Shown here piece after piece: positions 198-60,024 of a stretch of DNA of 64,000 bases. Origin of the DNA: Acidimicrobiia bacterium (GTDB taxonomy: Bacteria; Actinomycetota; Acidimicrobiia; IMCC26256; JACDBD01); assembly GCA_035637335.1 (NCBI GenBank), contig DASPXI010000046.1, positions 1,311 through 65,310 of the forward strand, read 5' to 3'. The notes beneath the pieces are model-generated. The model had not been told where the DNA came from. It searched no databases and saw only the letters and a program-made list of their open reading frames with translations. Position 1 is the first letter of the stretch. Every line of letters begins with the position of its first letter. Made by a program: the position numbers and the translations under genes.

Positions 198-964
198 TCG
201 ACCCGGTAACCGCGTTCCGCTTGGACGGCAAGGTCGCGCTGGTCACCGGAGCCACGCGCGGCATCGGACGTGCCATCGCCGAGGCGTACGCCGCCGCCGG
301 GGCCGACGTGTGCGTGCTCGCGCGCAAGAAGGACGAGCTCGACGAGACCCAGGTTGCGCTCGCGGCCGTGGGACCGCGCGTCGCCGTCTACGCCGGCTCG
401 GCCGGTGACCCCGAGGCCATCGAGGCGTCCGTTGCGCACTGTCTCGACGAGCTCGGCGCTCTCGACATCCTCGTGAACAACGCCGGCACGAACCCGACGT
501 TCGGGCCGATGATCGAGACGGAGACTCGCGCCGTGCGAAAGGTCCTCGAGGTGAACGTCGAGGGTCCGCTGCTGCTTTCGCAAGCAGCATGGCGTACGTG
601 GATGCGCGACCACGGTGGCGTGATCATCAACGTGGCGTCTCTCGGTGGTATCCGCCCCTCGCTGGGCATCGGCATGTACAACACGTCGAAAGCGGCGCTG
701 ATCCACATGACGCGCCAGCTCGCGGTCGAGCTTGCCCCCGGCGTTCGGGTGAACGGAATTGCACCCGGTCTCGTCAAGACCCACTTCGCTCGACCGCTCT
801 ACGAGCACGACGAGGAAGGCACGGCGGCGCGCTTCCCGATGAAGCGCCTCGGCATACCCGACGACGTCGCCGGCGCGGCGTTGTTTCTTGCATCCGACGC
901 GTCGTCGTGGATCACAGGCGAGCTGATCGTCGTCGACGGCGGCGGGCTGATCGGCGGCCCGTAA
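194..964 (+). CDS. SDR family oxidoreductase (3-oxoacyl-ACP reductase-like)
   Basis: Track ORF of 256 aa. It has the N-terminal TGATRGIGRAIA Rossmann motif, NNAG, and the YNTSKAA catalytic Y-x3-K. Confidence 0.85.
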   Translation: MIDPVTAFRLDGKVALVTGATRGIGRAIAEAYAAAGADVCVLARKKDELDETQVALAAVGPRVAVYAGSAGDPEAIEASVAHCLDELGALDILVNNAGTNPTFGPMIETETRAVRKVLEVNVEGPLLLSQAAWRTWMRDHGGVIINVASLGGIRPSLGIGMYNTSKAALIHMTRQLAVELAPGVRVNGIAPGLVKTHFARPLYEHDEEGTAARFPMKRLGIPDDVAGAALFLASDASSWITGELIVVDGGGLIGGP

Positions 965-988: not shown

Positions 989-1747
989 TTATAGGAACGC
1001 GCGTGCAACCTCGAGTGCGGCGACGGCGCCCTCGCCCTCGGCGACCAGACCCCGCGCTTCGTCACGCGTCATCCGCTGCACGAACAGGCGGCAGAACTCG
1101 CCCGCCGGTCCCGTGATCCGGTTGGACGATCCTTCCGGCCCGTACTCCCACGTCTCGTCGCCGGACGGCGACGTGAGCTCGACCCGAATGTCACCCGGTG
1201 GCGGCTCGTGCCCCGCGAACGAGAACGCGTACGGGAGGGCGCGGTGGCTGAGCCAGGCGACGTGCCGGAGAGCGTCGGTATCGACGACGGGAAGGCCCAG
1301 CGCGGCGCGCACGTCGAGACCGTGCGCCCACGCCTCCATGAGGCGGGCTGTCACGAATGAGGGTGGGCGCATCCCGAGGCCCCACGGAACGCGCGTGGCG
1401 GCGTCGAGGCCGGCGAGCACGTTCCGCTCACGGGCCGACGTCTCCTCCCACCACGCCAGCACGTCGCGCCCGGAGCACCGGCGACCGCGCAGCACACCCC
1501 ACAAGGTCGTGTCCTCGGCGGACGCGAAGCGAGCCGCGAAGTCGTTGAGGGGACGTGGTCCCCCGGTGCAAGTGTCGATGGCGATCTCGTCGGTGTCGGC
1601 AAGGTGCGCGATCGTGTCGCGGACGTCCCAGCCCTTGGCCGGCGTCGGCCGGAACCAGTCGTCCGCGTTCAGGTCATGTAGCTCTGTCTGCAGGCTCGTC
1701 TGGTCGTGCTCGAGCGCCTCGAGCAGCGAACGGAAGTCAGTGTCCAC
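989..1747 (-). CDS. Maleylpyruvate isomerase-family, mycothiol-dependent (DinB-like, TIGR03084-type) protein
   Basis: The C-terminal 252 aa of track ORF 989..2071 has DinB-like sequence (WDVRDTIAHLADTD...). The N-terminal 108 aa of the track ORF is Arg/Ser-rich and overlaps the upstream gene. An in-frame GTG at 1747 gives an 11-nt overlap with the upstream stop. Confidence 0.7.
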   Translation of the reverse strand: MDTDFRSLLEALEHDQTSLQTELHDLNADDWFRPTPAKGWDVRDTIAHLADTDEIAIDTCTGGPRPLNDFAARFASAEDTTLWGVLRGRRCSGRDVLAWWEETSARERNVLAGLDAATRVPWGLGMRPPSFVTARLMEAWAHGLDVRAALGLPVVDTDALRHVAWLSHRALPYAFSFAGHEPPPGDIRVELTSPSGDETWEYGPEGSSNRITGPAGEFCRLFVQRMTRDEARGLVAEGEGAVAALEVARAFL

Positions 1748-2567
1748 TGCTCCAGCGGCGAGAGCCGTTCGTCGCGCGCGAAGCCGGACGCCGGCGCGTG
1801 AATTGCACCGGGACTTCGGAGGGATGCGGTGCCGGCGGAGGCTCCGCCCGCGTCCGGTCGTCGAGGTAGGCGACCACCTGCTTGTACAGCTCGTCGCCGA
1901 GCATCTTGCGCATCTCCTCGGCCATCGAACGGTAGACAGGCTCGGAGGCGGTGAAGGCCTCGGGAGCCTCGGTGCACCACCACGCGAACTCCCGACCGCC
2001 CTCGCCCCAACCGTCGCGACCGAACTCCGAGAACGTCGAGACGACCGAACCGTCCTCCTGCTCTTCGTCAACCGAGCGAAGCGGTAACTGCCAGCACACG
2101 TCGGGCTTCAGGTCGCTGTGATGCTGCCCGGTACGGATGGCGTGTTGGTGCAGCGCGCACCCCGGCCCGCCCGGGAATCCGGGTCGGTTCAAGAAGATGC
2201 AGGCGTCGTCGACGAGGCGGGTGCGCCATTCGATGCGTCCCTCCTCGTCCTTGCCGCTCTTCGCGTAAATGCCCTTGGCGCGTCCGGTCTTCGCGTACTG
2301 CCACTCATCATCGGAAAGTTCCTTTGCCGCGCGCACGACGCGATCGCGGTCCTTGCGGCTCGAGAAGTGCGCTCCATAGGAGCAGCAGCCCTGCACCATT
2401 TCCGCCGCGGGCTCGGTGAGCACACCCTGGCAGCCGTGCCCGAAGATGCACTGCCAGTGCGAAGTCAGGAACGTGACGTCGATCTGCCAGCGCCGGCCCT
2501 CTTCCTTCGGGTCGTCGAAGGTCACCCACTCACGGGTCGGCCCGGACCGGGTTCGCGGCGCGCTCAA
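1737..2567 (-). CDS. Conserved Cys-rich hypothetical protein
   Basis: Track ORF 1737..2618. Cys clusters HWQCIFGHGCQGV, GCCSYGAHF, GCALH and DVCWQLP. I place the start at TTG 2567, which is preceded by GGAAG 5 nt upstream. The 17 codons further upstream are the repeated three-box element, not protein. Confidence 0.65.
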   Translation of the reverse strand: MSAPRTRSGPTREWVTFDDPKEEGRRWQIDVTFLTSHWQCIFGHGCQGVLTEPAAEMVQGCCSYGAHFSSRKDRDRVVRAAKELSDDEWQYAKTGRAKGIYAKSGKDEEGRIEWRTRLVDDACIFLNRPGFPGGPGCALHQHAIRTGQHHSDLKPDVCWQLPLRSVDEEQEDGSVVSTFSEFGRDGWGEGGREFAWWCTEAPEAFTASEPVYRSMAEEMRKMLGDELYKQVVAYLDDRTRAEPPPAPHPSEVPVQFTRRRPASRATNGSRRWSSGH

Positions 2568-2574
2568 AATGCTT

Positions 2575-2632
2575 CCTTTCGCCGTCGCAAGCTCCGGCTG
2601 TGCAGCGACGGTCGGCAAAGCCGCCGTCGCTG
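2575..2632 (-). promoter_or_regulatory. Three-box leader element, copy A
   Basis: Minus-strand sequence GCGACGGCGGCTTTGCCGACCGTCGCTGCACAGCCGGAGCTTGCGACGGCGAAAGGAAG. It is near-identical to the copies at 31570, 38545 and 41106. Confidence 0.65.
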
Positions 2633-2638
2633 CCGCCG

Positions 2639-2644
2639 AGAGTA
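2639..2644 (-). promoter_or_regulatory. Candidate -10 box (TACTCT) for the Cys-rich gene
   Basis: TANNNT hexamer preceded by TGTG. It ends 8 nt before box 1 of copy A (10 nt before its GACGG core), close to the geometry upstream of pafA. Confidence 0.35.
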
Positions 2645-2665: not shown

Positions 2666-2809
2666 TTACATATCGACGGCAGTGGTGATGCCCACGCGCT
2701 CGTAGCCGACCTCGAGTCCAAGCTCGGCCCCGGCCGGGCGCGCGCCGAGCCGCTGGAGCTCGCGCTGTACCAGCGTGACGCCGGTGTCGATCGCGGCGAT
2801 GCCGCCGCC

Positions 2810-4108
2810 GTGTGCTTCCCGAACAGCGGCGTGGAGCTCGCCGCCGCCGTGCGCATCGCGGCGCAGCACGGTCGTCCGTTCGTGGCCCGCGGGAGCGGCA
2901 CCGGCCTCGCCGGGGGAGCGACCCCGGTGGGCGACCCGCTCGTGATCGTCACCACACATCTCAACCGGATCCTCGAGGTGAACGCCGAAGACAGGTACGC
3001 GTGGGTGGAGCCCGGAGTGCTCAACCTCGATCTGACTCGGGCGGTTCAGCACCTGAACCTGCACTACGCGCCGGATCCGTCGTCGCAGCAGGCGTGCACG
3101 ATCGGCGGCAACGTGGCGACGAACGCCGGGGGCCCGCATTGCCTCGCTGCCGGAGTCACTGCAATGCACGTGCTGGCGATCGAGGTCGTGCTGGCGGACG
3201 GTTCCACGACGATGCTCGGAGGCCTCGAGCCCGACCAGCCCGGCTACGACCTGCGCGGCTGTTTCGTCGGCAGCGAGGGCACGATGGGCATCGCGACCCG
3301 GATCGCGGTGCGGCTCGTGCCCGACCCGCCCGCGGTGCGCACGTTGCTGCTCGACTTCATGTCGATCGACGACGCCGCCGCGACCGTGAGCGCCATCATC
3401 GCCGACGGCATCGTTCCTGCCGCCCTCGAGATGATGGACGCCGAGATCACGCGGGCGGTCGAGGACTTCGTGGGGGCGGGATACCCACGGGACGCCGCCG
3501 CCGTCTTGCTCGTCGAGCTCGACGGGCTCCCGGCCGGAGTCGCCGCCCAGGTCGACGCGGTGCGTCGCATCGGGACGAAGCACAGCGCGCGCGCCGTGCG
3601 CGTGGCGGCCGACGAGGCCGAGCGCGCGCTGCTGTGGAAGGGACGCAAGTCGGCGTTCGGCGCCATCGCCCGTATCGCACCCGACTACTACCTCCACGAC
3701 GCCGTCGTGCCCCGCACCCGGCTCGTCGACGTGCTTCGGGACGTCTACCGGATCGCCGGCGAGTACGACCTGACGATGATGAACGTCTTCCACGCCGGCG
3801 ACGGCAACCTCCACCCGCTGATCGCGTTCGACCAGCGCCAGCCCGGCGTCTGGGAACGGGTGCATGCCGCCGGTGACGCCATCCTGCGTGTCTGCGTCGA
3901 CGCCGGTGGCGTGCTCTCGGGCGAGCACGGCATCGGGCTCGAGAAGCGGGAGGCGATGCCGCTGGTCTTCACGGCCGACGACCTCGATGCGCAGGCGAGG
4001 CTGCGGGACGCATTCGACCCTTCGGGCCGCGCCAATCCGCAAAAGATCCTGCCCCGCGGAAGCCGCTGCGGGGAGCTGCAGCGCATACCCGAAGGAGCTT
4101 GGGTCTGA
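2810..4108 (+). CDS. glcD: Glycolate oxidase subunit GlcD (FAD-linked oxidase). The true start is probably upstream, near 2672.
   Basis: Track ORF of 432 aa with an FAD-binding PCMH-type N-terminal region (RGSGTGLAGGA). The frame stays open and GlcD-like back to 2663 without any ATG/GTG/TTG. Confidence 0.85.
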   Translation: MCFPNSGVELAAAVRIAAQHGRPFVARGSGTGLAGGATPVGDPLVIVTTHLNRILEVNAEDRYAWVEPGVLNLDLTRAVQHLNLHYAPDPSSQQACTIGGNVATNAGGPHCLAAGVTAMHVLAIEVVLADGSTTMLGGLEPDQPGYDLRGCFVGSEGTMGIATRIAVRLVPDPPAVRTLLLDFMSIDDAAATVSAIIADGIVPAALEMMDAEITRAVEDFVGAGYPRDAAAVLLVELDGLPAGVAAQVDAVRRIGTKHSARAVRVAADEAERALLWKGRKSAFGAIARIAPDYYLHDAVVPRTRLVDVLRDVYRIAGEYDLTMMNVFHAGDGNLHPLIAFDQRQPGVWERVHAAGDAILRVCVDAGGVLSGEHGIGLEKREAMPLVFTADDLDAQARLRDAFDPSGRANPQKILPRGSRCGELQRIPEGAWV

Positions 4109-5148
4109 TGGCGACGCGTGTGGCGCTCGCGCTGGACGAGCTGCGGCAGACCATCGCGACCGCCGACGCCGTCCTGCCGACCGGCGCACGTACGCACTGG
4201 GAGGTCGGCAACCCGCCCGGCGACGGGGTCGTGGTGCGCGCCCCCGCCGGGGTCGTCGCGTACGACCCCGCCGAGCTGACGGTCACGGTCGGCGCCGGCA
4301 CGTCCGTGGGCGACCTTGCGGCAGTGCTGGCCGACGCCGGTCAGGAATGCCCGCTCGACCCGAGGTCAGCGGCGGCCACGGTGGGCGGCACGATCGCGAC
4401 CGGCTTGTCGGGGCCGCGCCGCCTCCGCCACGGGCCGCTGCGCGACCGCGTGCTCGAGGTCCGTTTCGTCACCGCTGACGGCCGGCTGGTGAAGGGAGGC
4501 GGGCCGACGGTCAAGAACGTGACCGGCTACGACATCCCCCGCCTACTCGTGGGGTCGTTCGGCACGATCGGCGTCCTCGTGCAGGTGACGCTGCGGTGCC
4601 AGCCGCGACCGCGGCACGCGCGCTGGGCCGTGACCGACGCCGATCCGTTCGAGACGCGCCGGCGTCTGTTCCGGCCGTCCTGCGTCGCCTGGGATGGTCG
4701 CACCACACGTGTGCTGCTCGAGGGAAACGACGACGACATCGCGGCTGAAGCCGCGGCTGCGGAACTCGAGCTCGGCGAGGCTGCCGAGCCCAGATGGCCG
4801 GACGGCGTGCACCGGGGACGAATGTCGGTGCGACCGAGCCGTCTCGGTGAGCTCGGTGCGGCGCTCGACGGCGTCGATGGTCCGCGGTGGCTGGCCGAAA
4901 TCGGCGTCGGCACGGTCCACGTCGCCGGCGATTCGCCCGATGCCCTCGTCGCCGCGCGTCAAGTGTCCGTCGCGCATGAAGGCTGGCTGCTCCGGGAATC
5001 CGGCGCCCCCGGTGTCGACGGCTACGGCGCGCCGCCGCCGAACCTCGCCATCCTCGAACGCATACGAGGCGCATTCGATCCCACCGGCAAGCTCGCACCC
5101 GGTCGGCTCCCGATCGCTCCCGCGCCATCGAGCTCGTCCGCGGCGTGA
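4108..5148 (+). CDS. glcE: Glycolate oxidase FAD-binding subunit GlcE
   Basis: Track ORF 4099..5148. ATG 4108 overlaps the glcD stop by 1 nt. The sequence is FAD_binding_4-like and the gene sits between glcD and glcF. Confidence 0.8.
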   Translation: MATRVALALDELRQTIATADAVLPTGARTHWEVGNPPGDGVVVRAPAGVVAYDPAELTVTVGAGTSVGDLAAVLADAGQECPLDPRSAAATVGGTIATGLSGPRRLRHGPLRDRVLEVRFVTADGRLVKGGGPTVKNVTGYDIPRLLVGSFGTIGVLVQVTLRCQPRPRHARWAVTDADPFETRRRLFRPSCVAWDGRTTRVLLEGNDDDIAAEAAAAELELGEAAEPRWPDGVHRGRMSVRPSRLGELGAALDGVDGPRWLAEIGVGTVHVAGDSPDALVAARQVSVAHEGWLLRESGAPGVDGYGAPPPNLAILERIRGAFDPTGKLAPGRLPIAPAPSSSSAA

Positions 5149-31172: not shown

Positions 31173-31352
31173 CGAGGACGAGTGAGGATTTGAGTAGTCG
31201 TTACTCAGGACCGCGACCGCGCGGTGGAGTGCGATGCGGGCATGAGCCGGAAGATCTGGGGCGCAGTGCTCGTACTTGGTGTCGTGATGATTCCCATCGG
31301 GGTCGTTTGGATGGCCTAAGCGATCACGCAGTCCGACTCGTCCGCGAGCGGC

Positions 31353-31565
31353 ATGTCCGGCAGCGATGCTGTGTGGCCGATCGTCGCGTTCTTTGTGGCT
31401 TTCATCGGCGGAACCCTGGTCACGGTCGGAAGCCTCGGGTTCATCTTCCGGTGGATGAACAGCGACGACGATGACAGCAGGTTCGACCTGTCTCCGTCGG
31501 AGACGATCGCCCAGGCCGTGCCGAAGACGAGGGCCGGTTGGGGCGGCGACGCTACCGAGGGCTGA
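31353..31565 (+). CDS. Small membrane protein (70 aa), hypothetical
   Basis: Track ORF with one clear TM helix (WPIVAFFVAFIGGTLVTVGSLGFIF). The stop lies 4 nt before three-box copy B. Confidence 0.35.
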   Translation: MSGSDAVWPIVAFFVAFIGGTLVTVGSLGFIFRWMNSDDDDSRFDLSPSETIAQAVPKTRAGWGGDATEG

Positions 31566-31569
31566 CGCG

Positions 31570-31660
31570 GCGACGGCGGCTTTGCCGACTGCCGTTGCAA
31601 AGCCCGAGCATGCGAGGGCGACAGAGAAGCAGAGCCGGAGCTTGCGACGGCGCCAGACAG
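31570..31660 (+). promoter_or_regulatory. Three-box element, copy B (orphan, with a tandemly duplicated 3' half)
   Basis: GCGACGGCGGCTTTGCCGACTGCCGTTGCAAAGCCCGAGCATGCGAGGGCGACAGAGAAGCAGAGCCGGAGCTTGCGACGGCGCCAGACAG. Confidence 0.6.
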
Positions 31661-31668
31661 ACGCGACG

Positions 31669-31691
31669 GGCCCCGGGCAGGGGTCCGGGCC
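31669..31691. terminator. GC-rich hairpin between copy B and the 3' end of fdx
   Basis: GGCCCCGG-GCAGGGG-TCCGGGCC. It could terminate fdx (minus strand) and/or a plus-strand transcript carrying copy B. No clear U-tract. Confidence 0.35.
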
Positions 31692-31721
31692 TCGTGAACT
31701 TCGTGTTGCGGGGCGCGAGTC

Positions 31722-31958
31722 CTAGTCGACCTCGATGAAGATGCACTCACCGGGGCATTCCTCGGCCGACTCGATGACCGCCTCCTCCATCCCACCGGGC
31801 ACGTTGGCGAGCCCCTCGGCACCGCCCGGCTTCTCGAAGACCTTGTCGCCCTCTTTGACGTAGGCGAGGCCGTCGTCGAGCAGCGTGAACACGTCGGGTG
31901 CGATCTCCTCGCAGAGGCCGTCGCCGGTGCAGAGGTCCTGATCGATCCAGACCTTCAT
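31722..31958 (-). CDS. Ferredoxin (small single-cluster type)
   Basis: 78 aa with CTGDGLC...ECPGEC cluster ligands. Confidence 0.85.
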   Translation of the reverse strand: MKVWIDQDLCTGDGLCEEIAPDVFTLLDDGLAYVKEGDKVFEKPGGAEGLANVPGGMEEAVIESAEECPGECIFIEVD

Positions 31959-32101
31959 CGTGACGTCCGTCTCCTTGTCTCGGTCGTCTCGAGCGTTCAG
32001 GTTCGGGGGTTCCGGTCCCGCCGCGCTCTGATGAGCGTTCCAGGACCAGAGTACGGAACCGAGGTTATCCCGTCAATTTGTCAAGCGCAGATAGGGTAAA
32101 T

Positions 32102-32115
32102 TTTGAGGCCTCAAA
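32102..32115. promoter_or_regulatory. Perfect 14-bp palindrome TTTGAGGCCTCAAA in the fdx/arc divergent region (candidate operator)
   Basis: Seen directly. It sits in the only AT-rich patch of this intergenic region, 72 nt upstream of the arc start. Confidence 0.4.
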
Positions 32116-32186
32116 GTGCCCCGGGATCGTAAGAACCCGGGTGTAGGGTGCGCGGCGAGTGCCCGTCCGCAGTGGGAGGTGGTCAC

Positions 32187-33941
32187 GTGGCCTCCGAGCA
32201 CGAGCGACGCCTCGGAGAATACGAACGCCAGGTTGGTGAGCTCCAGCAGCAGGTGAAGGCGCTGGAGGAGGAAGTCGTCGTCCTGCGGCGTCGGCTGCAG
32301 GACGCTCCGAAGCGGGTGCGGACGCTCGAGGAGCGGCTGCTCGAGACGAAGGGCCAGCTGGCGCAGGCCGTCTCCCAGAACGAGAAGCTCTCGGCCACCT
32401 TGCGCGAGGCGCGCGAGCACATCGGCGCGCTGCGCGAAGAGGTCGAGAAGCTGACGATGCCGCCGTCGGCTTACGGGACGTTCCTCACCTCCAACGACGA
32501 CGGCACCGTCGACGTGTTCACGGCCGGCCGCAAGATGCGCGTCGCCTTGCATCCCGAGCTCGACGTCGACGAGCTCCAGCGGGGCCAGGAGGTCGTGCTC
32601 AACGAATCGCTCAACGTCGTGCTCGCGCGCGGCCACGACGTCGCCGGTGAGGTCGTCACGCTGAAGGAGCTGCTCGAAGACGGCCGACGCGCGCTCGTGG
32701 TCGGGCGGGCCGACGAGGAGCGCGTCTGCGAGCTCGGCACCGGCCTGTTCGGCGAGCGACTCCGCGCCGGCGACCACCTGCTGATGGAGACCCGATCGGG
32801 TGTGCTGGTCGAGCGGCTGCCACGTCCCGAAGTCGACGAGCTCATCCTCGAAGAAGTGCCCGACATCACGTACGGCGATGTCGGTGGGCTCGACGACCAG
32901 ATCGAGCAGATCCAGGACGCCGTCGAGCTTCCGTATCTGTATGCAGATCTCTTCCAGGAGCACCAGCTGCAGCCGCCCAAGGGGATCCTGCTCTACGGCC
33001 CGCCCGGCTGTGGCAAGACGCTCATCGCGAAGGCGGTCGCCAACTCGCTCGCGAAGCGCGTGGCGGAGAAGACGGGCGACAGCACGACGCGCTCGTACTT
33101 CCTCAACATCAAAGGCCCGGAGCTGCTCAACAAGTACGTGGGCGAGACCGAGCGCCAGATCCGGCTCATCTTCCAGCGGGCTCGGGAGAAGTCGGAGGAA
33201 GGCGTGCCCGTGATCGTCTTCTTCGACGAGATGGATTCGCTGTTCCGCACGCGCGGGTCAGGCATCTCCTCCGACATCGAGAGCACGATCGTCCCGCAGC
33301 TGCTCGCCGAGATCGACGGCGTCGAGAGCCTCAAGAACGTCATCGTGATCGGCGCCTCGAACCGAGAAGACCTCATCGACCCCGCGATCCTTCGGCCCGG
33401 CCGGCTCGACGTGAAGATCAAGATCGAGCGTCCCGACCGAGAGGCAGCGCGCCAGATCTTCAGTCGCTACCTGCGCGACGAGCTGCCGATCGCCGACGAG
33501 GAGAGCACGGAGCACGGCGGGAGGCGGCAGGCGGTTGCGTCGATGATCGAAGCCGCGGTCGACAGGATGTACGCCGACGACGAGGACAACCGGTTCCTCG
33601 AGGTCACCTACCAGAACGGCGACAAGCAAGTCCTGTACTTCAAGGACTTCGCCTCCGGCGCCATGATCGAGAACGTCGTGCGGCGGTCGAAGAAGATGTC
33701 GATCAAGCGGCAGATCGCCGGGGGCGAGAAGGGCATCTCGAGCGCCGACCTCATCGACGCGATCCGGCAGGAGTACCGCGAGCACGAGGACCTGCCGAAC
33801 ACGACGAATCCCGACGACTGGGCGAAGATCTCGGGGAAGAAGGGCGAGCGCATCGTCTTCGTGCGCACGCTGCTCGCCGACGACGAGGGCACCGGTGGCG
33901 GCCGGCAGATCGAGCGCGTCACCACCGGGCAATACCTCTGA
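32187..33941 (+). CDS. arc: Proteasome-associated AAA ATPase ARC/Mpa
   Basis: N-terminal coiled coil, Walker A GPPGCGKT, and the C-terminal GQYL 20S-docking motif. GTG 32187 is preceded by GGGAGGTGG. Confidence 0.92.
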
Positions 33942-34010: not shown

Positions 34011-35498
34011 GTGGCCGTGCCCAAGGTCTGTGGGATCGAGACCGAATACGGCGTCGCGCTTCGCGGAGCAACCGACGCCAACCCGGTGCTGGCCTCGTCG
34101 ATGCTCATCAACGCCTACGTCGAGCACCGCAAGGTGGGCTGGGACTTCGAGGACGAATCACCGGGCCGCGACGCCCGCGGCTTCGCCCGTGAGGGTGCGT
34201 CGCCGCCGGAGATCGAGACCCACCTCGTCAACACCGTGCTCACCAACGGTGCGCGCTACTACGTCGATCATGCGCATCCGGAGTATTCGACGCCGGAGTG
34301 CGCCGACGTGCTCGAGCTCGTCTGCGCCGACAAGGCGGGGGAGCGGATCCTCGCCCGTTCGATGAAGGCGGCCAGACACCTCCTCGGCTCGGGGCAGGAG
34401 ATCGTCGTCTACAAGAACAACACCGACGGGAAGGGCAACTCGTACGGCTGCCACGAGAACTACCTGGTCGACCGGGCGGTGCCCTTCGCCACGCTGGTTC
34501 GGCACCTGCTGCCGTGGTTCGTCACCCGGCAGGTGTTCACCGGCGCGGGCAAGGTCGGGGGGGAGAACGGCACCGGGCACACCGGCTACCAGCTGAGCCA
34601 GCGCGCAGACTTCTTCGAGGAAGAGGTCGGCCTCGAGACCACGCTGAAGCGCCCGATTGTCAACACCCGCGACGAGCCGCACGCCGACCCGCAGAAGTAC
34701 CGGCGGCTGCACGTGATCGTCGGTGACGCCAACCTGTGTGAAGTCGCGACGTTCCTGAAAGTCGGAACGACCGCCGTTCTGCTGGCGATGATCGAAGACG
34801 ACTTCATCGACAAGGACTACTCGATTGTTTCGCCCGTTCCCGCGATGCGCGCCGTCTCCCACGATCCTGAGCTGCGGGCGACTGTCGAGCTCGTCGACGG
34901 AGGGACGATTTCCGCGGTCGACCTGCAGTGGGAGTTCCTTCGCCTCGCTCAGAAGTACGCCGACGATGTCGGCCTCGAAGCGTGTGGTGGCGAGGAGCTC
35001 GGGCAGCAGGTGCTCGCCCGGTGGGAGTCGACGCTCGCAGGGCTCGAGCGCGACCCGATGACGCTCAACGGACAGCTGGACTGGGTCACGAAGCTGGAGC
35101 TGCTCGACGCGTACCGCGAGCGTGACGGCATCGATTGGGAGGACCCGAAGCTGGCGCTGCTCGACCTCCAATACCATGACGTGCGCCCTGAGAAGTCGTT
35201 GTTCGAACGGCTGGTGCGGGCGGGTAAGGTCGAGCGGTTGGTCGAGGAACCCGACGTGACGACCGCCATGACCGAACCGCCTGCGAACACCCGTGCATAC
35301 TTCCGAGGCCAGTGCCTGGCCAAGTGGGCCGACGCGGTCGTGGCCGCCAACTGGGACAGCCTCATCCTCGACGTGGGCAGCGATCCACTGCGACGCATCC
35401 CGATGATGGAGCCGCTGCGGGGAACGCAGGCCCACGTCGCGTCGTTGTTCGAGGAGTGCACGACCCCGGCCGAGCTGGTGGCTCGGCTGGCGTCGTAG
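34011..35498 (+). CDS. dop: Pup deamidase/depupylase Dop
   Basis: 495 aa, GIETEYG N-terminus, Pup-ligase/carboxylate-amine ligase fold with the extra Dop-type insertion relative to PafA. Lies next to pup. Confidence 0.9.
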
Positions 35499-35511: not shown

Positions 35512-35706
35512 ATGCCCGAACGAGAGCGCAAGCAGCGCCCGGCACCGAAGGAACGCGTCGAAGAAGAAGTCGAAGACCTCGCGCCCCCGAAGCAGGGCGA
35601 GAAGATCAAGGAAGAGCTCGACGATCTTCTCGACGAGATCGACAGCGTGCTCGAGGAGAATGCGGAGGACTTCGTAAAAAGCTATGTTCAGAAGGGCGGA
35701 GAATAG
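35512..35706 (+). CDS. pup: Prokaryotic ubiquitin-like protein Pup, C-terminus GGE
   Basis: 64 aa, acidic helix ...[31 protein letters not shown] Shine-Dalgarno upstream. Confidence 0.92.
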
Positions 35707-35775: not shown

Positions 35776-36339
35776 ATGAAGCGTTGCAAGAAGTGCGGTG
35801 CGTTGAAGCGCATCGACGACTTCTACCGGAACGGGGCACGCGACAGTCGTAGGCCTGAGTGCAAAGCGTGCACAAACGCACTGCGACTGAAGCGATATCG
35901 GCTCAATCGGGAAAAGGAGATTGCGCGCGTTCGAGCATGGCAGCGCGCAAATCCTGATCGAGTGAAAGCGTGGCGCGAGAAGAACCGTGACCGTCGCCTT
36001 GAGCAGCTGCGCGAGATTCATCTGCGCAACAAGTTCGGCCTCACGGTTGACGAATACAACCGCATTCTCGAAGCGCAGGGCGGTGTGTGTGCGATCTGCG
36101 AGAGCCCTCCCACCCCGGGGATCTCGCTGCATGTCGACCATGACCACGGCACGGGCGAGATCCGCGGTCTGCTGTGTGTGCGCTGCAACAACGCGCTCGG
36201 ACTGTTCCGGGAAGACACCGATCTGCTCAAGCGCGCTGCTCGCTATGTCAGCGCCGACGCCAAGCACCGGTCGCAGCGCACCAAATGGGAGCGGCTTGCC
36301 CGCGGACGGGCGCTCGCGTTGCGGGGGAGTGCGGCGTAG
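35776..36339 (+). CDS. Recombination endonuclease VII family protein (free-standing, low-GC)
   Basis: CAICE-x11-HVDHDHGTGEIRGLLCVRCNNALG matches the endonuclease VII zinc/His-Me finger core. Codon usage is visibly less GC-biased than in the neighbours. Confidence 0.8.
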   Translation: MKRCKKCGALKRIDDFYRNGARDSRRPECKACTNALRLKRYRLNREKEIARVRAWQRANPDRVKAWREKNRDRRLEQLREIHLRNKFGLTVDEYNRILEAQGGVCAICESPPTPGISLHVDHDHGTGEIRGLLCVRCNNALGLFREDTDLLKRAARYVSADAKHRSQRTKWERLARGRALALRGSAA

Positions 36340-38531: not shown

Positions 38532-38537
38532 TACGCT
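38532..38537 (+). promoter_or_regulatory. Candidate -10 box (TACGCT) for pafA
   Basis: TANNNT hexamer ending 7 nt before box 1 of copy C (10 nt before its GACGG core). Confidence 0.35.
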
Positions 38538-38544
38538 CCGCGCG

Positions 38545-38598
38545 GGGACGGCGGCTTTGCTGACCGTCACCGCAAAGCCGGAGCTTGCGACGGCGACA
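38545..38598 (+). promoter_or_regulatory. Three-box leader element, copy C
   Basis: GGGACGGCGGCTTTGCTGACCGTCACCGCAAAGCCGGAGCTTGCGACGGCGACA. It is followed by GGAGGAA and the pafA GTG. Confidence 0.65.
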
Positions 38599-38608
38599 AT
38601 GGAGGAAC

Positions 38609-39967
38609 GTGGAGCGCCGAATCTTCGGTCTCGAGAACGAGTACGGGGTCACGTGCACGCTTCGCGGCCAGCGTCGCCTGAGCCCCGACGAGGTGGCGCG
38701 CTATCTGTTCCGCCGCGTCGTCTCGTGGGGTCGGTCCAGCAACGTGTTCCTGGAGAACGGCGCCCGGCTCTACCTGGACGTGGGCAGCCACCCCGAGTAC
38801 GCCACGCCCGAGTGCGATTCGATCGACGACCTCGTCGTGCACGACAAAGCGGGCGAGCGAATCCTCGAAGGTCTCGTACGCAGCGCGGAGCAGCGCCTGC
38901 GCGAAGAAGGCATCCGAGGCGAGGTGTTCCTGTTCAAGAACAACACCGACTCGGCCGGCAACTCCTACGGCTGCCATGAGAACTACCTCGTCGAGCGCGA
39001 CGGCGACTTCGCCAAGTTCACCGACGTGCTCATCCCGTTCCTGGTGACCCGGCAGGTCTATGCGGGCGCAGGAAAGGTTCTCCAGACCGCCCGTGGGGCC
39101 ATGTATTGCGTCAGCCAGCGGGCCGAGCACATCTGGGAGGGCGTGTCCAGCGCCACGACCCGGTCCCGACCGATCATCAACACGCGTGACGAGCCTCATG
39201 CCGACGCCGAGCGCTTCCGGCGACTGCACGTGATCGTCGGCGACTCGAACATGAGCGAGTACACGACGTTCCTGAAGATCGGCGCGACCTCGGTGGTCCT
39301 GAGGATGCTCGAAGAGGACGCCAGCCCTTGGCGTGATCTCACGCTCGAGAACCCGATCCGCGCCATCCGCGAGATCAGCCACGACCTGACCTGCCGCCGC
39401 CGGGTGCGTCTCGCCAACGGCCGCGAGCTGTCGGCGATCGAGATCCAGGCCGAGTACCTCAACCGCGCGCTGCGCTTCGCCAAGCGCCGCGGGCTCGCGC
39501 CGCTCGAGGAGCAGGCGTTGCGTATGTGGGAGCAGGCCATGGTCCGCCTGCAGGACGACCCGCTGTCCCTCGACACCGAGGTCGACTGGGTCATCAAGTA
39601 CCACCTCATCGAGGCGTACCGGAAGCGACACGACCTTCCGCTGACGCACCCGCGTATCGCCTTGCTCGACCTCTCGTATCACGACGTGACGCGCGCGCGT
39701 TCGCTCTACTACCTCCTCGAGCGACGCGGACAGCTCCAGCGCACCGTTCGGGACAGGGACATCGAGAATGCGGTGACGACCCCTCCCCAGACCACCCGAG
39801 CCCGACTTCGGGGCGCGTTCATCAAGCGGGCCAAGGAGCGCAAGCGTGACTACACGGTCGACTGGGTCCACCTGAAGCTGAACGACCAGGCCCAGCGCAC
39901 CGTCCTCTGCAAGGACCCGTTCAAAGCGCGCGACGACCGCGTCGAGCGGCTCATCTCTTCGCTGTAG
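38609..39967 (+). CDS. pafA: Pup--protein ligase PafA
   Basis: [16 protein letters not shown]...[47 protein letters not shown] closely matches my recollection of mycobacterial PafA. GTG 38609 is chosen over the track TTG 38585, which lies inside the leader element. Confidence 0.92.
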
Positions 39968-40041: not shown

Positions 40042-41109
40042 ATGCCGTCGTTTCGGTCGGGGAAGGTGACGCGGCTGCTCGTCGAGCGGCCGGGGTTGCA
40101 GCGCGTCGAAGTCGATCTCGGCGAGGGCCCCGAGCCGGCGTATGTGCTGACGCAGCTGACCGGGACCGTGGCAGTGGGTGATCGGATCGTCGTCAACACC
40201 ACCGCCGTCGAGCTCGGGCTCGGCACGGGCGGCTGGCACGTCGTGCACTGGAACCTCGAACGCGAGTCGTGGGCGGAGCGGGGACCGGGGCACATCATCA
40301 AGGGCCGCTACACGAGCCTCCAAGCCGACGTCGGCAGCACCGAAGAGCACCTCGAAGAGCTGGCCGCGGTCGAGTCGGTCGACGGTATGCCGGTCGTGGC
40401 CGCAGCGCTGCACAGTCAGCTCGCGGCGGCGGCCGTCGCGTTCAAGGAGCGCGCGCCTGACGCGCGGCTGGTGTACGTGATGACCGATGGCGCCGGGCTA
40501 CCGCTCGCGCTGTCGGACCTGGTGTTCGCGCTTCGAGAACGCGGGCTCGTCGACGCCACCGTGACGTGCGGTCACGCCTTCGGCGGTGACTTCGAAGCCG
40601 TGTCGATCTTCTCCGCACTCGCAGTCGCCAGACACGCCGCTGGCGCCGACGCAGTGGTCGTCGCGATGGGACCGGGCATCGTGGGTACGAACAGCCGGCT
40701 CGGATTCTCGGGTATGGAGGTGGGTTCGATCCTCGACGCCGCCGTCGCCCTCGGTGGACAGCCCATCGCTTGCTTGCGGGTCTCGTTCGCCGATCCTCGG
40801 GCGCGCCACGTCGGGCTCTCGCACCACTCCCGTACGGCGCTGCGGCTCGCGTGTCGCGAGCGAGTGGCGGTGGCCGTTCCGAACCTCGCCGGCGATCACG
40901 GCACCCGCCTCCGGGCCGACCTCGAGGACGCGGGCATCGAGCAGCGCCACGATCTGATCGAAGTGACGCCGCCGGACGTGCTCGACCTGTTCGAGCGCCA
41001 CGCCCTCGAGGTCACCTCGATGGGCCGAGCGGCCGCCGACGACCCCGCCCTGTTCCTCGCGGCGGCCGCGGCCGGAGTGCTGGCCGCCGATCGTGCGCGC
41101 CCGCGATGA
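40042..41109 (+). CDS. DUF3866 family protein
   Basis: 355 aa. The N-terminus MPSFRSGKVTRLL...VNTTAVELGLGTGGWHVV matches my recollection of the DUF3866 family. It sits between pafA and pafBC. Confidence 0.7.
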   Translation: MPSFRSGKVTRLLVERPGLQRVEVDLGEGPEPAYVLTQLTGTVAVGDRIVVNTTAVELGLGTGGWHVVHWNLERESWAERGPGHIIKGRYTSLQADVGSTEEHLEELAAVESVDGMPVVAAALHSQLAAAAVAFKERAPDARLVYVMTDGAGLPLALSDLVFALRERGLVDATVTCGHAFGGDFEAVSIFSALAVARHAAGADAVVVAMGPGIVGTNSRLGFSGMEVGSILDAAVALGGQPIACLRVSFADPRARHVGLSHHSRTALRLACRERVAVAVPNLAGDHGTRLRADLEDAGIEQRHDLIEVTPPDVLDLFERHALEVTSMGRAAADDPALFLAAAAAGVLAADRARPR

Positions 41110-41160
41110 CGGCGGCTTTGCCGACCGTCATCGCAGGAGCCGGAGCTCGCGACGGCGACA
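41106..41160 (+). promoter_or_regulatory. Three-box leader element, copy D
   Basis: ATGACGGCGGCTTTGCCGACCGTCATCGCAGGAGCCGGAGCTCGCGACGGCGACA. Box 1 contains the DUF3866 stop codon. The element ends 8 nt before the pafB ATG. Confidence 0.65.
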
Positions 41161-41168
41161 GGTAGCGC

Positions 41169-42098
41169 ATGATCGACCGGCTCGAGCGGCTCACCAATCT
41201 CGTCGCCACGCTGCTCGACACGCGGCGGCCGCTCACGCTGGACGAGATCGTCGAGCTCGTGCCCGGCTACCCGGACGACAAGCTCGCGCATCGCCGTCAG
41301 TTCGAGCGCGACAAGGAGACACTGCGGGGCATCGGAATCCCGGTCCGGCTCGAGCCGGTCGACGACCTCGGTCCGGAGCAGGGATATCGCATCCCGCCCG
41401 ACGAGTACTACCTGCCACCACTGGACCTCACGCCGGATGAGCAGGCGGCGCTGCACGTCGCGGTGACTGCGGTGCGCCTCGAGGGAGGGCCCGCGCCGGC
41501 AGAGGCGCTGTGGAAGCTCGGCGGCCGGGAAGGTGAAGCCGCGAACGCCCTGGCCGCGTTGCCGACCGTGTCGGCGCTGCCCGCGCTGTTCGACGCGTAC
41601 CGCTCGCGGGCGGCGGTGACGTTCACGTATCGGGGCGAGCTGCGGCGCGTCGACCCGTGGGGGATCCTGTTCCGGCGCGGGCACTGGTACGTCGTCGGCC
41701 ACGACCACGACCGCGGCGATCGCCGGTCGTTTCGCGTGGACCGCATCGAAGGGGATGTCGAGACGGGTCCGGCCCGGGCATTCGAGCCGCCGGCCCACCT
41801 CGAGCCGGCGGCGCTGCTCGGCGACGAACCCTGGCGTTACGGCGACGAGGAGGTCGTCTCCGCCCGCGTTGCAGTCGACGCCGCGCAAGCCGCGGCGATC
41901 GTGGAGCAGGTCGGTGAGGATGCGGTCGTCGAACGTCGAGACGACGGGAGCGTCGTGGTGGAGCTCTCGGTCACGAACACCGCTGCTTTCAGATCGTTCG
42001 TCCTCGGGCTCCTGGACGCCGCGGAGGTCATCTCCCCCCCGGAGCTCCGCGACGAGATGCGCGCCTGGCTCGACGCGCTCGCTCGGAGCGACACGTGA
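41169..42098 (+). CDS. pafB: HTH-WYL transcriptional regulator PafB
   Basis: 309 aa with an N-terminal wHTH (LTLDEIVELVPGY) and a WYL domain (RRGHWYVVGHD). Position is right after pafA. Confidence 0.85.
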   Translation: MIDRLERLTNLVATLLDTRRPLTLDEIVELVPGYPDDKLAHRRQFERDKETLRGIGIPVRLEPVDDLGPEQGYRIPPDEYYLPPLDLTPDEQAALHVAVTAVRLEGGPAPAEALWKLGGREGEAANALAALPTVSALPALFDAYRSRAAVTFTYRGELRRVDPWGILFRRGHWYVVGHDHDRGDRRSFRVDRIEGDVETGPARAFEPPAHLEPAALLGDEPWRYGDEEVVSARVAVDAAQAAAIVEQVGEDAVVERRDDGSVVVELSVTNTAAFRSFVLGLLDAAEVISPPELRDEMRAWLDALARSDT

Positions 42099-43039
42099 GC
42101 CCGCGGCCGCTGCCCGGCCCCCGGCTCCGGCGCGTGCTCGCGCTCGTGCCCTGGATCGCCGAGCACCCCGGCGCCGCCCTCACCGACATCGCGGCGCGCT
42201 TCGGGGTGTCGGAGGTAGGCCTCGAACACGACCTCGGGCTCTTGCCGATGTGCGGACTCCCGCCCTACACACCCGATCGGCTCATCGAGGTCGAGATCGT
42301 CGACGGCCACGTGTGGATCCGGTTCGCCGAGTACTTCGAACGTCCGCTGCGGCTGTCGGCTGAGGAAGGCCTCGCCCTGCTCGCAGCGGGCCGCGCGTTG
42401 CTGGCAGTTCCGGGATCCGACGAGCACGGCGCGCTCGCCACTGCGCTCGAAAAGCTCGCTCGAGTCGTCGGCGCTGCCGACGGGCTCGCGGTCGAGGTGG
42501 GGGAGCCGCCGTTCCTCGATGCCTTGCGTCGGGCCACCGATGCGAACGAGCGCGTCGAGATCGACTACTACTCGTTCGGACGCGACGCCACGACGACCCG
42601 CCAGATCGACCCGCAGTCGGTGTTCCACGCCTTCGGCCACTGGTACGCGGCTGCCTACTGCCATCAGGCGGCCGACGAGCGTCTGTTCCGTTTGGATCGC
42701 ATCCGCGCCGTTCGACCGACCGGGAGCCACTTCGAGCCGCCGGCCCGTGAGGACGCGGCCCATTTCGCGAACACCGTGTATCACCCACGCGCCGAGGACC
42801 CACGAGTCACGCTCGAGCTCGCTTCGGAGGCGGCGTGGGTGGTGGAGAGCTACCCGTCCGAGGAGGCGCAAGAGAGGCCCGACGGCTCGTGGCGGGTCGT
42901 CCTTGCGGTCAGCGAACGAGCGTGGCTGGAACGGCTGCTCCTCCAGCTGGGGCCGGCGGCCCGGGTGATGGCGCCCCCCGGGCTACGAGCAGTCGGGGCG
43001 GAAGCCGCGAAAAGGCTCCTCACCCGCTACCGCCGGTGA
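42095..43039 (+). CDS. pafC: HTH-WYL transcriptional regulator PafC
   Basis: 314 aa with a GTGA overlap with pafB. WYL-type motif FGHWYAAAYC. Confidence 0.85.
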   Translation: MSPRPLPGPRLRRVLALVPWIAEHPGAALTDIAARFGVSEVGLEHDLGLLPMCGLPPYTPDRLIEVEIVDGHVWIRFAEYFERPLRLSAEEGLALLAAGRALLAVPGSDEHGALATALEKLARVVGAADGLAVEVGEPPFLDALRRATDANERVEIDYYSFGRDATTTRQIDPQSVFHAFGHWYAAAYCHQAADERLFRLDRIRAVRPTGSHFEPPAREDAAHFANTVYHPRAEDPRVTLELASEAAWVVESYPSEEAQERPDGSWRVVLAVSERAWLERLLLQLGPAARVMAPPGLRAVGAEAAKRLLTRYRR

Positions 43040-50981: not shown

Positions 50982-51444
50982 GCAGCATCGACGCGCGACG
51001 GTGCTGGTCACAAGACCGGTGCCAAAGTGAACGGCTCTTGACAGGAGCCCTAATTCTCGGGCGTACTACTTCTCGCCCCTGTGCCGTGAAGCCGGTCGTG
51101 GGTCTTCCGGTGTCGATGCCGCGGAGCTCGTTCGGAAGGGACGGAGAGGGGTGTAGGGGGTTCAGGAGGCCAAGTAGAGAACGCTGGAATAACCCCGCCG
51201 CTCGAGCGGCGCGGGCCAAACAGTGGCCCCAACGGTCTCCTGGACCCCTCCGTCAACCGGCCCCGCCCGCGCTGACGGTCCGGTGACGCCCGAGCGGGGG
51301 AATGCGCGAGCCGGGCGCCTCGTTGACCAGCACCTCAGGGACGCGGCGTTATACTCCGCGGCCCCACAGCCCCGGGAACCCGTCCCGTAGCGAGGCGCAG
51401 CGGGCTCCATCCCGGTGGGCTGGCGCCTCGCGGAGCAGAGACCC

Positions 51445-51951
51445 ATGAAAGACGACGACTTCGATGAAGAGGAGGAGGAGCCCGAACTCGACGAGGCTTC
51501 CCTCGACGAGGAGGACCTCGAGGCCGACGAGCTCGACGACGACGACGACGAGGAGCTCGACGGCGACGTCGCGCTCGAAGACGAGGACGAAGACGTCGAC
51601 GAGGGCGGCGAGGAGAACGAGGTTGTCGTAGCCGAGCCCGCCGCCGCGAAGACGAAGGCCGCGACCGGCGAGGAGGACGAGGACGTCCTCGACCTCGACG
51701 AGGAGCTGCATCCCGACGACGTGGAGGAACCGTTGGACGTGCTGCTCCAGGAGCGCACGGCCGCAGCGACGCTCGAGGACGAGGAAGAAGAGGCTGAGGA
51801 AGAGGAACCGGACGTCGACGAGCGCGGCGACGGCCCGACCAGGATCATGCCCCGACGTCCCGGCGAGTTCCTCTGTGCCTCCTGCTTCCTCGTGCTGCCA
51901 CGGAGCCAGCTCGCCGACGCCAAGCGGATGCTCTGTCGCGACTGCGCGTGA
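51445..51951 (+). CDS. DUF4193 family protein (acidic N-region plus C-terminal Cys4 domain)
   Basis: C-terminus RRPGEFLCASCFLVLPRSQLADAKRMLCRDCA. ATG 51445 lies 9 nt after GGAG. Confidence 0.7.
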   Translation: MKDDDFDEEEEEPELDEASLDEEDLEADELDDDDDEELDGDVALEDEDEDVDEGGEENEVVVAEPAAAKTKAATGEEDEDVLDLDEELHPDDVEEPLDVLLQERTAAATLEDEEEEAEEEEPDVDERGDGPTRIMPRRPGEFLCASCFLVLPRSQLADAKRMLCRDCA

Positions 51952-59804: not shown

Positions 59805-60003
59805 CCCCGCTCTGTCCCGGGACCTGAGAGATTCACCGGCCGCCGGCGGCCGGCTTTCCCCGTCGGTGAGACCCCGGCCGTGACCGGTGCCCGCTCTCCA
59901 GAGGTGCCTCGCCCGGGCGGTCCATTCGCCTGAGAGTTTCCGGGGAGGGGTTGCTCCTTCGGCTCCCCCGGCCGAGAACGGTCGGGGGGCTCTCCCGCTC
60001 GGG
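59805..60003 (-). ncRNA. Tandem glycine riboswitch (two aptamers) in the gcvP leader
   Basis: Minus-strand aptamer 1: GGGAGAG...GCCGAAGGAGCAA...CTCTCAGGC..GGAC. Aptamer 2: CTCTGGAGAG...CACCGACGGGGAAAG...CTCTCAGG..GGACAGAG. A GGGCCAC/GTGGCCC hairpin follows, then the Shine-Dalgarno. Confidence 0.85.
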
Positions 60004-60024
60004 TTCGACGGCTTTCCCGCGAGG

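Follow-up and report, generated by a model that had tools for sequence, protein, structure and literature searches.

What is a short repeat doing between the stop codon of one gene and the 3' end of its convergent neighbour, where it leads no gene at all? The question is raised by copy B, an element at positions 31566-31661 of a 64,000-nt stretch of DNA from an Acidimicrobiia bacterium (contig DASPXI010000046.1, hereafter the window), which is part of an uncultured actinobacterial chromosome bearing a Pup-proteasome locus (gene names are by Pfam assignment). The original prediction had matched copy B to the leaders of pafA and pafBC, and offered three readings: a small RNA (sRNA) titrating a factor common to these leaders, a module of the 3' untranslated region (UTR) or terminator, or a sign of duplication like that of mycobacterial interspersed repetitive units (MIRUs) or REP sequences. 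The last reading is the best supported, by polymorphism of the site, a composite form in pafA leaders, arrays and many copies. We consider it probable that copy B is an orphan in a 3' UTR: a nested-type copy, truncated at its 5' end and lacking a promoter, of a lineage-specific, duplicating structured repeat of about 60 nt. On this view it bears no particular relation to arc, fdx or the paf genes, and it is not the arc leader.

Copy B and its counterparts

The element was recognized by two boxes. The 18-nt 5' box GACGGCGGCTTTGCCGAC occurs exactly at 31572-31589 and is also found at 2611-2628 (minus strand), 38547-38564 and 41108-41125; with up to 3 mismatches the window holds 5 matches against 0.42 expected, and none of 100 shuffles reaches 5. 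The 3' box AGCCGGAGCTTGCGACGGCG, with an expectation of 0.06, has one match in every other copy, while copy B has two, an exact one at 31633-31652 and, ahead of it, one with 3 mismatches at 31601-31620. Both counts are far above chance and the repeat is therefore real. A covariance model (R1), built from 80 genome copies outside the window, finds exactly four copies in the window with 85.4, 84.5, 83.6 and 73.0 bits. The last score belongs to copy B (E=6e-13); the next best hit in 64 kb stays at or below 18.5 bits. Box matches and model score thus bear out that copy B shares its element with the pafA and pafBC leaders, and the doubling of its 3' half is confirmed as well. The copies and their parts are the following:

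31566-31661 (+): copy B, fourth copy of the element in the window, with the 3' box present twice
31567-31598 (+): hairpin P1 of copy B, apex CGGC-UUU-GCCG and bulged A (31588) intact
31602-31619 (+): hairpin P2b of copy B, GCCC-GAGCAUGCGA-GGGC, a compensated P2 variant
31620-31633 (+): purine-rich spacer of copy B, GACAGAGAAGCAGA, tail of the inner unit
31634-31651 (+): hairpin P2a of copy B, canonical GCCG-GAGCUUGCGA-CGGC
31652-31661 (+): tail of copy B, GCCAGACAGA
31662-31696 (strand-neutral): GC-rich hairpin with an 8-bp core at 31667-31687, between the small upstream gene and fdx
38532-38608 (+): copy A, pafA leader of simple type; -10 box TACGCT 38532-38537, P1 38542-38573, P2 38577-38594, Shine-Dalgarno sequence (SD) GGAGGA, GTG start 38609
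41103-41168 (+): copy C, intercistronic between the DUF3866 gene and pafB; P1 41103-41134 overlapping the DUF3866 stop, P2 41139-41156, ATG start 41169
2568-2644 (-): copy D, leader of the gene for a 276-aa protein; -10 box TACTCT 2644-2639, P1 2633-2602, P2 2598-2581, SD AGGAAG, TTG start 2567

Copy B directly abuts the TGA stop codon 31563-31565, and pairing of P1 begins at 31567. It had been placed 4 nt after the stop of a 70-aa open reading frame (ORF). That this frame encodes a membrane protein holds true (two transmembrane segments); the frame itself (31353-31565) is the C-terminal remainder of a gene at 31234-31565 (plus strand), whose orthologues have 107-108 aa. An in-frame TAA stands at 31309-31311 of this gene in the window, where a 99.3%-identical relative has TAC; the gene of the window strain is thus a pseudogene, a split gene or an assembly error. 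As had been stated, copy B faces the 3' end of the convergent gene fdx (4Fe-4S ferredoxin, 31722-31958, minus strand) and leads no coding sequence: no SD, start codon or ORF was found downstream of its tail. The GC hairpin foreseen behind the copy is also present.

The first of the two 3' boxes had been called degenerate. It does carry 3 mismatches, yet it has not decayed, because GCCC...GGGC substitutes for GCCG...CGGC and the helix of P2b is retained; the variant is compensated. The outer stem of P1 combines the consensus 5' strand with a different 3' strand, CUGCCGUUGC, here called b-type. Nine of its ten pairs can form, three of them as G.U, and the remaining one is an A.C mismatch.

This b-type strand leads to the pafA leaders of sister strains (99.3% and 97.0% identical over fdx-arc), which are 64 nt longer than the one in the window. 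Their order is P1a - P1b - P2b - spacer - P2a - SD - start codon, with P1b = GCAACGGCAG...CUGCCGUUGC and P2b = GCGG...CCGC (L136, 10040-10169; L135, 9575-9703; the window counterpart at 38542-38608 has the simple form). The pafA leader is therefore polymorphic within the species, being either simple P1-P2 or carrying a 64-nt inner unit (P1b-P2b) between P1 and P2. The nested architecture with identical P1b occurs at three further, unrelated loci (L240, ahead of an uncharacterised ORF, L217 and L241), where P2b is GCCC/GGGC or GCGG/CCGC and never has the P2a stem. The span from P2b to P2a is 50-51 nt in nested forms and 50 nt in copy B. Having the b-type P1 3' strand, a P2b (GCCC/GGGC) that differs from P2a and the matching span, all without P1a, copy B is a truncated member of the nested subfamily; its spacer is also homologous to the spacer in the nested pafA leaders of the sister strains. 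As it shares a recurrent arrangement of P2b and P2a, its duplicated 3' half was inherited or copied as a block rather than produced by a slip at the site. Deletion between the identical loops of P1a and P1b would yield exactly the chimeric P1 of copy B.

The B site was then compared among contigs encoding an identical ferredoxin protein. All keep the gene order cvpA-protease, small membrane gene, convergent fdx, arc, and they differ in what lies at the B site:

L124, L127: fdx-arc identity 100%; composite copy
L129, L131: fdx-arc identity 99.3%; composite copy with a 3-nt deletion in P1
L130: fdx-arc identity 97.0%; no recognisable copy
L125, L126, L132: fdx-arc identity 89.6%; no copy
L128: fdx-arc identity 88.1%; one simple canonical copy, 84 bits
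L123: fdx-arc identity 87.3%; no copy, hairpin almost directly after the stop codon

The number of tandem halves, proposed earlier as a thing to check among strains, does vary, the site holding no copy, one simple copy or the composite. Judging by these contigs, copy B is dispensable and variable among relatives. The GC hairpin (GCCCGGG...CCCGGGC) with the flanking CTTCGTGA is kept in all of them, element present or not; it thus belongs to the convergent gene pair, and the element is not the terminator. The hairpin is probably a terminator shared by the small gene and fdx. A simple scan (T-run rule) finds no U-run after it in the window; in relatives its minus-strand side continues TTCTTC or TTCATT.

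Short direct repeats lie at the edges of copy B (31563-31580 and 31657-31670: GACGCG(GC)GACGG / GACGCGACGG), and others flank the copy-B allele of L128 (about 2795-2885, minus strand: AAACGCAGTGA / AAACGCAATGA). They overlap the first bases of P1 and could be target duplications, microhomology or the start of a partial unit.

A structured repeat in leader position

How widespread is the element? We scanned 185,579 species-representative genomes with the pattern GGCTTTGCYGAC-N8-22-GCCGGAGC and obtained at least 116 loci. Among the matches listed, about 80 are true copies with 31-33-nt spacing and the expected flanks; they come from about 18 soil metagenome-assembled genomes (MAGs), several per MAG, labelled Acidimicrobiia, Actinomycetota or uncultured Actinomycetes. 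The element is thus known from at least 18 MAG species of soil Acidimicrobiia/Actinomycetota. Matches in other phyla have different spacings and no similarity in the flanks, and were therefore treated as chance. A second scan, of metagenome contigs and with the P2 stem left free, gave at least 117 loci, nearly all on soil contigs. Model R1 finds further copies in the fetched loci that miss the scan pattern. In the flanks of ascertained copies there is about one further copy per 35-42 kb, and one per 16 kb in the window, which suggests copies on the order of 10^2 per genome. Four copies in 64 kb, against roughly 1.7 expected from the flank-derived density, is not a significant enrichment at the Pup locus on this rough estimate.

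The family is previously undescribed, as it has no match in Rfam or in the literature. Searched with Rfam 15 at gathering thresholds, the whole window gives only two glycine riboswitch aptamers and no match at any copy; no family is found in 31300-32200 at E<=10, nor at E<=1 in L136, the locus of a relative that has simple and nested copies. Full-text literature on the core sequence and on Acidimicrobiia repeats contained no description of the element that we could find.

The unit of about 60 nt consists of P1, a linker of 3-4 nt, P2 and a purine-rich tail that usually acts as the SD. P1 is a hairpin of 14 bp. Its inner part CGGC-UUU-GCCG and the bulged A are invariant, and its outer 10 bp vary and covary (GCGAUGACGG/CCGUCAUCGC, GCAGCGACGG/CCGUCGCUGC, GCGGGAGCGG/CCGCUCCCGC). 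P2 is GCCG-GA-G-CUUG-C-GA-CGGC, a 4-bp stem around GAGCNNGCGA with a G-C pair closing the CNNG loop. It holds two conserved G/A oppositions, which may be tandem sheared pairs.

Compensatory changes back both hairpins, and they do so in two data sets independent of each other. Of the stem cells in the genome set, 94% pair, and 7 pairs of P1 are changed on both sides; none of 500 shuffles reaches the observed values, except one of 500 for the number of pairs changed on both sides, and slid controls collapse. The metagenome set, whose selection did not depend on the P2-stem sequence, has 95% of cells paired and 10 pairs doubly changed. These include three of the four P2 pairs, the innermost of which (49-60) is GC in 76 copies, CG in 15 and UA in 1. 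The P2 stems seen are GCCG/CGGC, GCCC/GGGC, GCGG/CCGC, ACCG/CGGU, GCCU/AGGC and GUCG/CGAC. RNAalifold arrives at P1 and P2 on its own and also finds the closing G-C pair of the CUUG loop. In the alignment, G.U cells are more frequent than A.C cells (39 to 11), which favours pairing in RNA of the sense strand.

Two conceivable functions of the stems were also considered. Firstly, GGAG of P2 as an SD mimic is weakened by about 15% of copies, which carry CGAG with a compensating change opposite, so that it is the pairing and not the GGAG sequence that is kept. Secondly, a switch in which the P1 3' strand pairs with the 3' half of P2 has no support, as the P1 strand varies and the P2 half is invariant.

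Position statistics cover 75 copies of the genome set and 90 of the metagenome set, in each case among the matches listed. An SD, a start codon and an ORF with high GC at third codon positions follow within 6-22 nt in 37 of 75 copies in sense, versus 3 of 75 in the antisense control; the metagenome replicate gives 33 of 90 versus 2 of 90. Distances of the start codon after ...GACGGCG peak at 12-14 nt in the metagenome set. On the other side, the motif TAnnnT lies 4-6 nt upstream of P1 in 31 of the 41 genome-set copies that have no preceding same-strand ORF end, versus 6 of 45 others, and at the fixed distance in 18 of 20 versus 20 of 70 in the replicate. With the usual distance of 6-8 nt from a -10 box to the transcription start site, transcripts would begin at the base of P1. 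An intercistronic class, to which copy C belongs, has a stop codon 0-16 nt ahead of P1 and accounts for 16/75 and 20/90 copies. The class of copy B, after a stop codon and without downstream ORF, makes up 12/75 and 8/90. Neither position was found for 21/75 and 31/90.

The genes led by the element are a functionally unrelated cross-section of the genome and are not paf-specific. They include ffh, trmD, proS, scpA, rpiB and genes for chorismate mutase, a PLP-dependent enzyme with CBS domains, methylmalonyl-CoA mutase, enoyl-CoA hydratase, P450, MDMPI/DinB proteins and glyoxalase; within the window they are pafA, pafB and the gene of the 276-aa protein of unknown kind. Compared between species, the element in orthologous leaders shows 98-100% identity, versus 77-89% at third codon positions of the adjacent genes, so in the pairs tested leader copies are more conserved than synonymous sites. 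The 80 nt upstream of orthologous leader copies are 87-99% identical.

Some more specific roles in regulation can be set aside here. A regulon of PafBC or RecA-NDp type does not fit unrelated housekeeping genes and an element that lies downstream of the -10 box, not at -26/-35. A riboswitch is ruled out by the heterogeneous gene set together with the 3'-UTR and intercistronic copies. A leader peptide, or a MIRU-like ORF, is contradicted by the lack of a start codon and by 1-nt indels between copies. The copy of L011, considered as leader of a pafB orthologue, precedes a protein unrelated to PafB.

Tandem or partial arrays occur in other genomes, at L056 and L063 (both tandem) and at L040. Orphan copies in two species, at L039 (about 4860-4929, minus strand) and L084 (about 215-284, minus strand), face the 3' end of a convergent tRNA-like sequence (complement of GGTTCGAATCC) and share a conserved upstream stretch, AGAGCAAGCATTTCG. 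This could be a small gene missed in annotation, or a copy conserved outside the leader position.

Readings of copy B

We suggest the following course of events. In most copies the family unit lies in sense, exactly between a -10 box, or the stop codon of an upstream cistron, and a start codon, so that many unrelated mRNAs would begin with it or contain it between two cistrons. P1 and P2 would act in the RNA as a generic leader module. They could protect transcripts against 5'-end-dependent RNases, insulate the SD from structure upstream of it, and/or offer their similar loops CUUUG and CUUG to a common RNA-binding factor. Spread and rearrangement by duplication or recombination would have given rise to tandem arrays, partial units and the nested form. 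Copy B would then be the P1b-P2b-spacer-P2a part of a nested unit that landed, or was left, between a stop codon and a terminator hairpin. It is probably co-transcribed as 3' UTR and would add 3'-end structure at most.

Several observations weigh against this account. The single-sequence fold of copy B is no better than that of shuffles (z = -1.3 and -1.5), and in its minimum free energy structure the P1 3' strand binds the P2a region, so that the three hairpins do not appear. RNA of the orphan copy may therefore misfold, or the consensus structure may not apply to it; because thermodynamic folding misses the P2 hairpins in copy B and in nested leaders, we took covariation as the structural basis. 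The compensated P2b and the P1 kept by G.U pairs could signal continuing constraint at the RNA level, and if so, a functional role would fit better than pure decay. The hairpin apices are conserved to an extreme degree, for which a mere stabiliser role does not account; their invariance argues for a specific partner. The direct repeats beside the alleles (GACGCG..ACGG in the window, AAACGCA(G/A)TGA in L128) can be read in more than one way. Finally, both the transcription start sites and the co-transcription of copy B are inferred from sequence.

A specific partner would be provided if P1 and P2 were paired sites of a lineage-specific global RNA-binding regulator or of the translation or degradation machinery. 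About 100 unrelated housekeeping mRNAs per genome would then share one post-transcriptional control point through their common 5' leader, nested copies would double the sites, and orphans like copy B would be decoys. We give this idea a small chance of being right.

It is improbable, in our opinion, that copy B itself is a functional sRNA, whether independent or processed from the 3' UTR of the mRNA for the membrane protein, serving as sponge or decoy for a leader-binding factor. Such a role would suit the run of three family hairpins with a terminator-like hairpin behind it, the compensated P2b stem and the P1 pairing retained via G.U, and the composite kept in two strains 99.3% identical; other genomes, too, have copies in the order stop codon, element, hairpin (for example L020 and L128). 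However, a scan of the 30 nt upstream of copy B found no TAnnnT -10 box, only TACCGA, unlike the leader copies with their box at a fixed distance. A consensus scan gave no promoter-like site at the copy, and a -35 candidate inside the element (TTGCGA) has no -10 box at the proper distance. The copy is absent from the 97% and 87-90% relatives, with a single simple unit in another; its folding is no better than shuffles, and the small gene upstream has a premature stop in the window strain. With the terminator-like hairpin lacking a U-run in addition, copy B is probably not an sRNA gene. The earlier idea that it titrates a factor of the paf leaders is not supported either, the boxes not being paf-specific.

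Could the element work as DNA? It might be a REP-like single-stranded hairpin for a tyrosine transposase (RAYT or IS200-IS605 type) or a site of another DNA-binding protein, with the leader position a by-product of tolerated insertions. The imperfect palindrome with a bulged base and covarying outer stem recalls REPs, and many copies per genome, presence/absence polymorphism, nested and tandem copies and short direct repeats beside the copy-B alleles would all be expected of it. We nevertheless regard it as an outside chance, given the strand bias towards the downstream gene (37:3 and 33:2), the fixed spacing to the -10 box and the start codon, the excess of G.U over A.C (39:11) and the conservation of orthologous leaders beyond synonymous sites. 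Moreover, there is neither a GTAG-type REP signature nor an inverted doublet.

Copy B as a terminator or 3'-end module of the small membrane-protein gene, aiding termination or blocking 3' exonucleases, is likewise unlikely. The location between a stop codon and a conserved hairpin is what that proposal would require, and about 10-15% of copies follow a same-strand ORF end without a downstream ORF (12/75, 8/90). Against it, the terminator hairpin is conserved in relatives lacking the element, no U-run follows P1 or P2, and the same module serves as a 5' leader elsewhere. Of the 3'-UTR or terminator reading first proposed, the position between stop codon and terminator-like hairpin therefore stands, and the terminator function does not, since the hairpin occurs without the element.

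That copy B is a far-upstream leader or regulatory element of arc, transcribed antisense through fdx, we dismiss as very improbable: it lies on the same strand 527 nt upstream (about 500 nt had been given) and the Pup-system genes pafA and pafB carry the element, yet there is no promoter at copy B, the conserved hairpin and a convergent gene intervene, family leaders end 12-14 nt before the start codon, copy-less relatives share the same fdx-arc region and arrangement, and the family is not Pup-system-specific.

The locus, known repeats and significance

Our preferred reading, a truncated orphan copy of a leader repeat, raises the question of whether such a family is already known in other bacteria. 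MIRUs are intergenic or intercistronic units of 40-100 bp. They are defined by small ORFs whose ends overlap the stop and start codons on either side, and conserved covarying hairpins are not known from them. The Acidimicrobiia element resembles them in actinobacterial host, position between genes, orientation with the flanking genes and strain-variable tandem number. MIRUs, reportedly described by Supply et al. in 1997, differ from it in several ways: our element has no reading frame or start codon and shows 1-nt indels (linkers measure 3 or 4 nt), the stop codon upstream falls at the P1 edge or beyond it, and two covarying hairpins would often form the primary 5' end of the transcript. We judged the sequences unrelated, without comparison to MIRU consensus sequences.

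REP, BIME and REPIN sequences are found mainly on the 3' side of genes, either in both orientations or arranged as inverted doublets, have a GTAG-type 5' signature and are linked to RAYTs. Like our element, these proteobacterial repeats are short, GC-rich imperfect palindromes with tens to hundreds of lineage-specific extragenic copies; they are transcribed with neighbouring genes, and REPs can stabilise mRNA. The element differs by a strand bias of about 12:1, a location mostly 5' of genes, fixed spacing and the second hairpin P2, as well as by the lack of GTAG and of inverted doublets.

The Correia elements of Neisseria, ERIC, BOX, RUP and bcr1 measure 100-200 bp and have terminal inverted repeats and defined target duplications. 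Repeats of this kind, similar to miniature inverted-repeat transposable elements, share with our family dispersal beside genes, co-transcription and presence/absence polymorphism, and can alter promoters, processing and stability. In contrast, the Acidimicrobiia unit of about 60 nt is asymmetric (P1 differs from P2), lacks terminal inverted repeats and often provides the whole 5' UTR including the SD.

Two kinds of leader structure should also be mentioned. The stabiliser stem-loops of the ompA 5' UTR, the aprE leader and ermC are features of single genes without sequence conservation across genes. Their stable hairpin at or near the 5' end, followed by an accessible SD, equals the mode proposed for P1; here, however, one conserved sequence serves very many genes and is also found in 3' UTRs. 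Rfam cis-regulatory leaders and riboswitches likewise have covarying hairpins with invariant loops between promoter and SD, whereas our element matches no family, has no common downstream function and no conserved SD-sequestering alternative, and exists in intercistronic and 3'-UTR copies. None of these kinds fits as a family; we regard the element as a structured repeat of one lineage that at the same time acts as a shared 5' leader.

The remaining features of the window are these:

32187-33941 (+): arc/mpa, proteasomal AAA ATPase, starting 527 nt downstream of copy B; no element copy directly upstream (covariance-model scan of the window)
34011-35498: dop (Pfam)
35512-35706 (+): pup (Pfam)
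35776-36339 (+): Endonuclease_7 (PF02945) ORF, 187 aa, between pup and prcB
38609-39967: pafA, GTG start 38609
40042-41109: DUF3866 gene, stop 41107-41109
41169-42098: pafB, ATG start 41169
42095-43039: pafC (Pfam)
1737-2567 (-): gene behind copy D, 276-aa Cys-rich protein with motifs WQCIFGHGCQG and CCSYGAHF, no Pfam or NCBIfam match
59810-60007 (-): tandem glycine riboswitch, two RF00504 aptamers of 62.8 and 41.6 bits

At the Pup locus, which also has prcB/A, the C-terminal end of Pup is GGE, not GGQ, despite the adjoining dop gene. The Endonuclease_7 ORF has 237 aa or 122-125 aa in relatives or is absent, and so resembles a variable mobile-endonuclease insertion within the proteasome operon. 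The stretch 51444-51830 is highly repetitive and GAC/GAG-rich, would encode an Asp/Glu-rich low-complexity region if coding, and dominates the direct-repeat families D1/D2 in the repeat scan of the window. A public contig with the exact window region (L001/L127/L134; ena:ERZ14695916:DNA_vOTU_2240, 301,680 bp) is labelled a viral OTU. Its Pup-proteasome locus, tRNA-modification genes and other cellular genes look chromosomal, and the label is therefore probably wrong.

Taken together, copy B by itself is of little import, being an expendable 3'-UTR copy and an ordinary orphan; the family is the point of interest. In an uncultured clade of soil Acidimicrobiia one repeat supplies the whole 5' UTR, from the presumed transcription start to the SD, of a sizeable set of unrelated housekeeping genes, and within a species it takes simple, nested, tandem and orphan forms by rearrangement. 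Annotators are thereby warned not to take copies of the element for gene-specific regulators such as "paf leaders", or for sRNA genes. The length polymorphisms within species at the B site and in the pafA leader could serve as strain markers. If an RNA-binding regulator does recognise the hairpins, the family would represent a "common leader" regulon of bacteria, disseminated by an RNA module that duplicates itself. With this family one could study, in a natural setting, how mRNA stability and translation respond to a portable leader cassette and by what routes cassettes of this kind spread.

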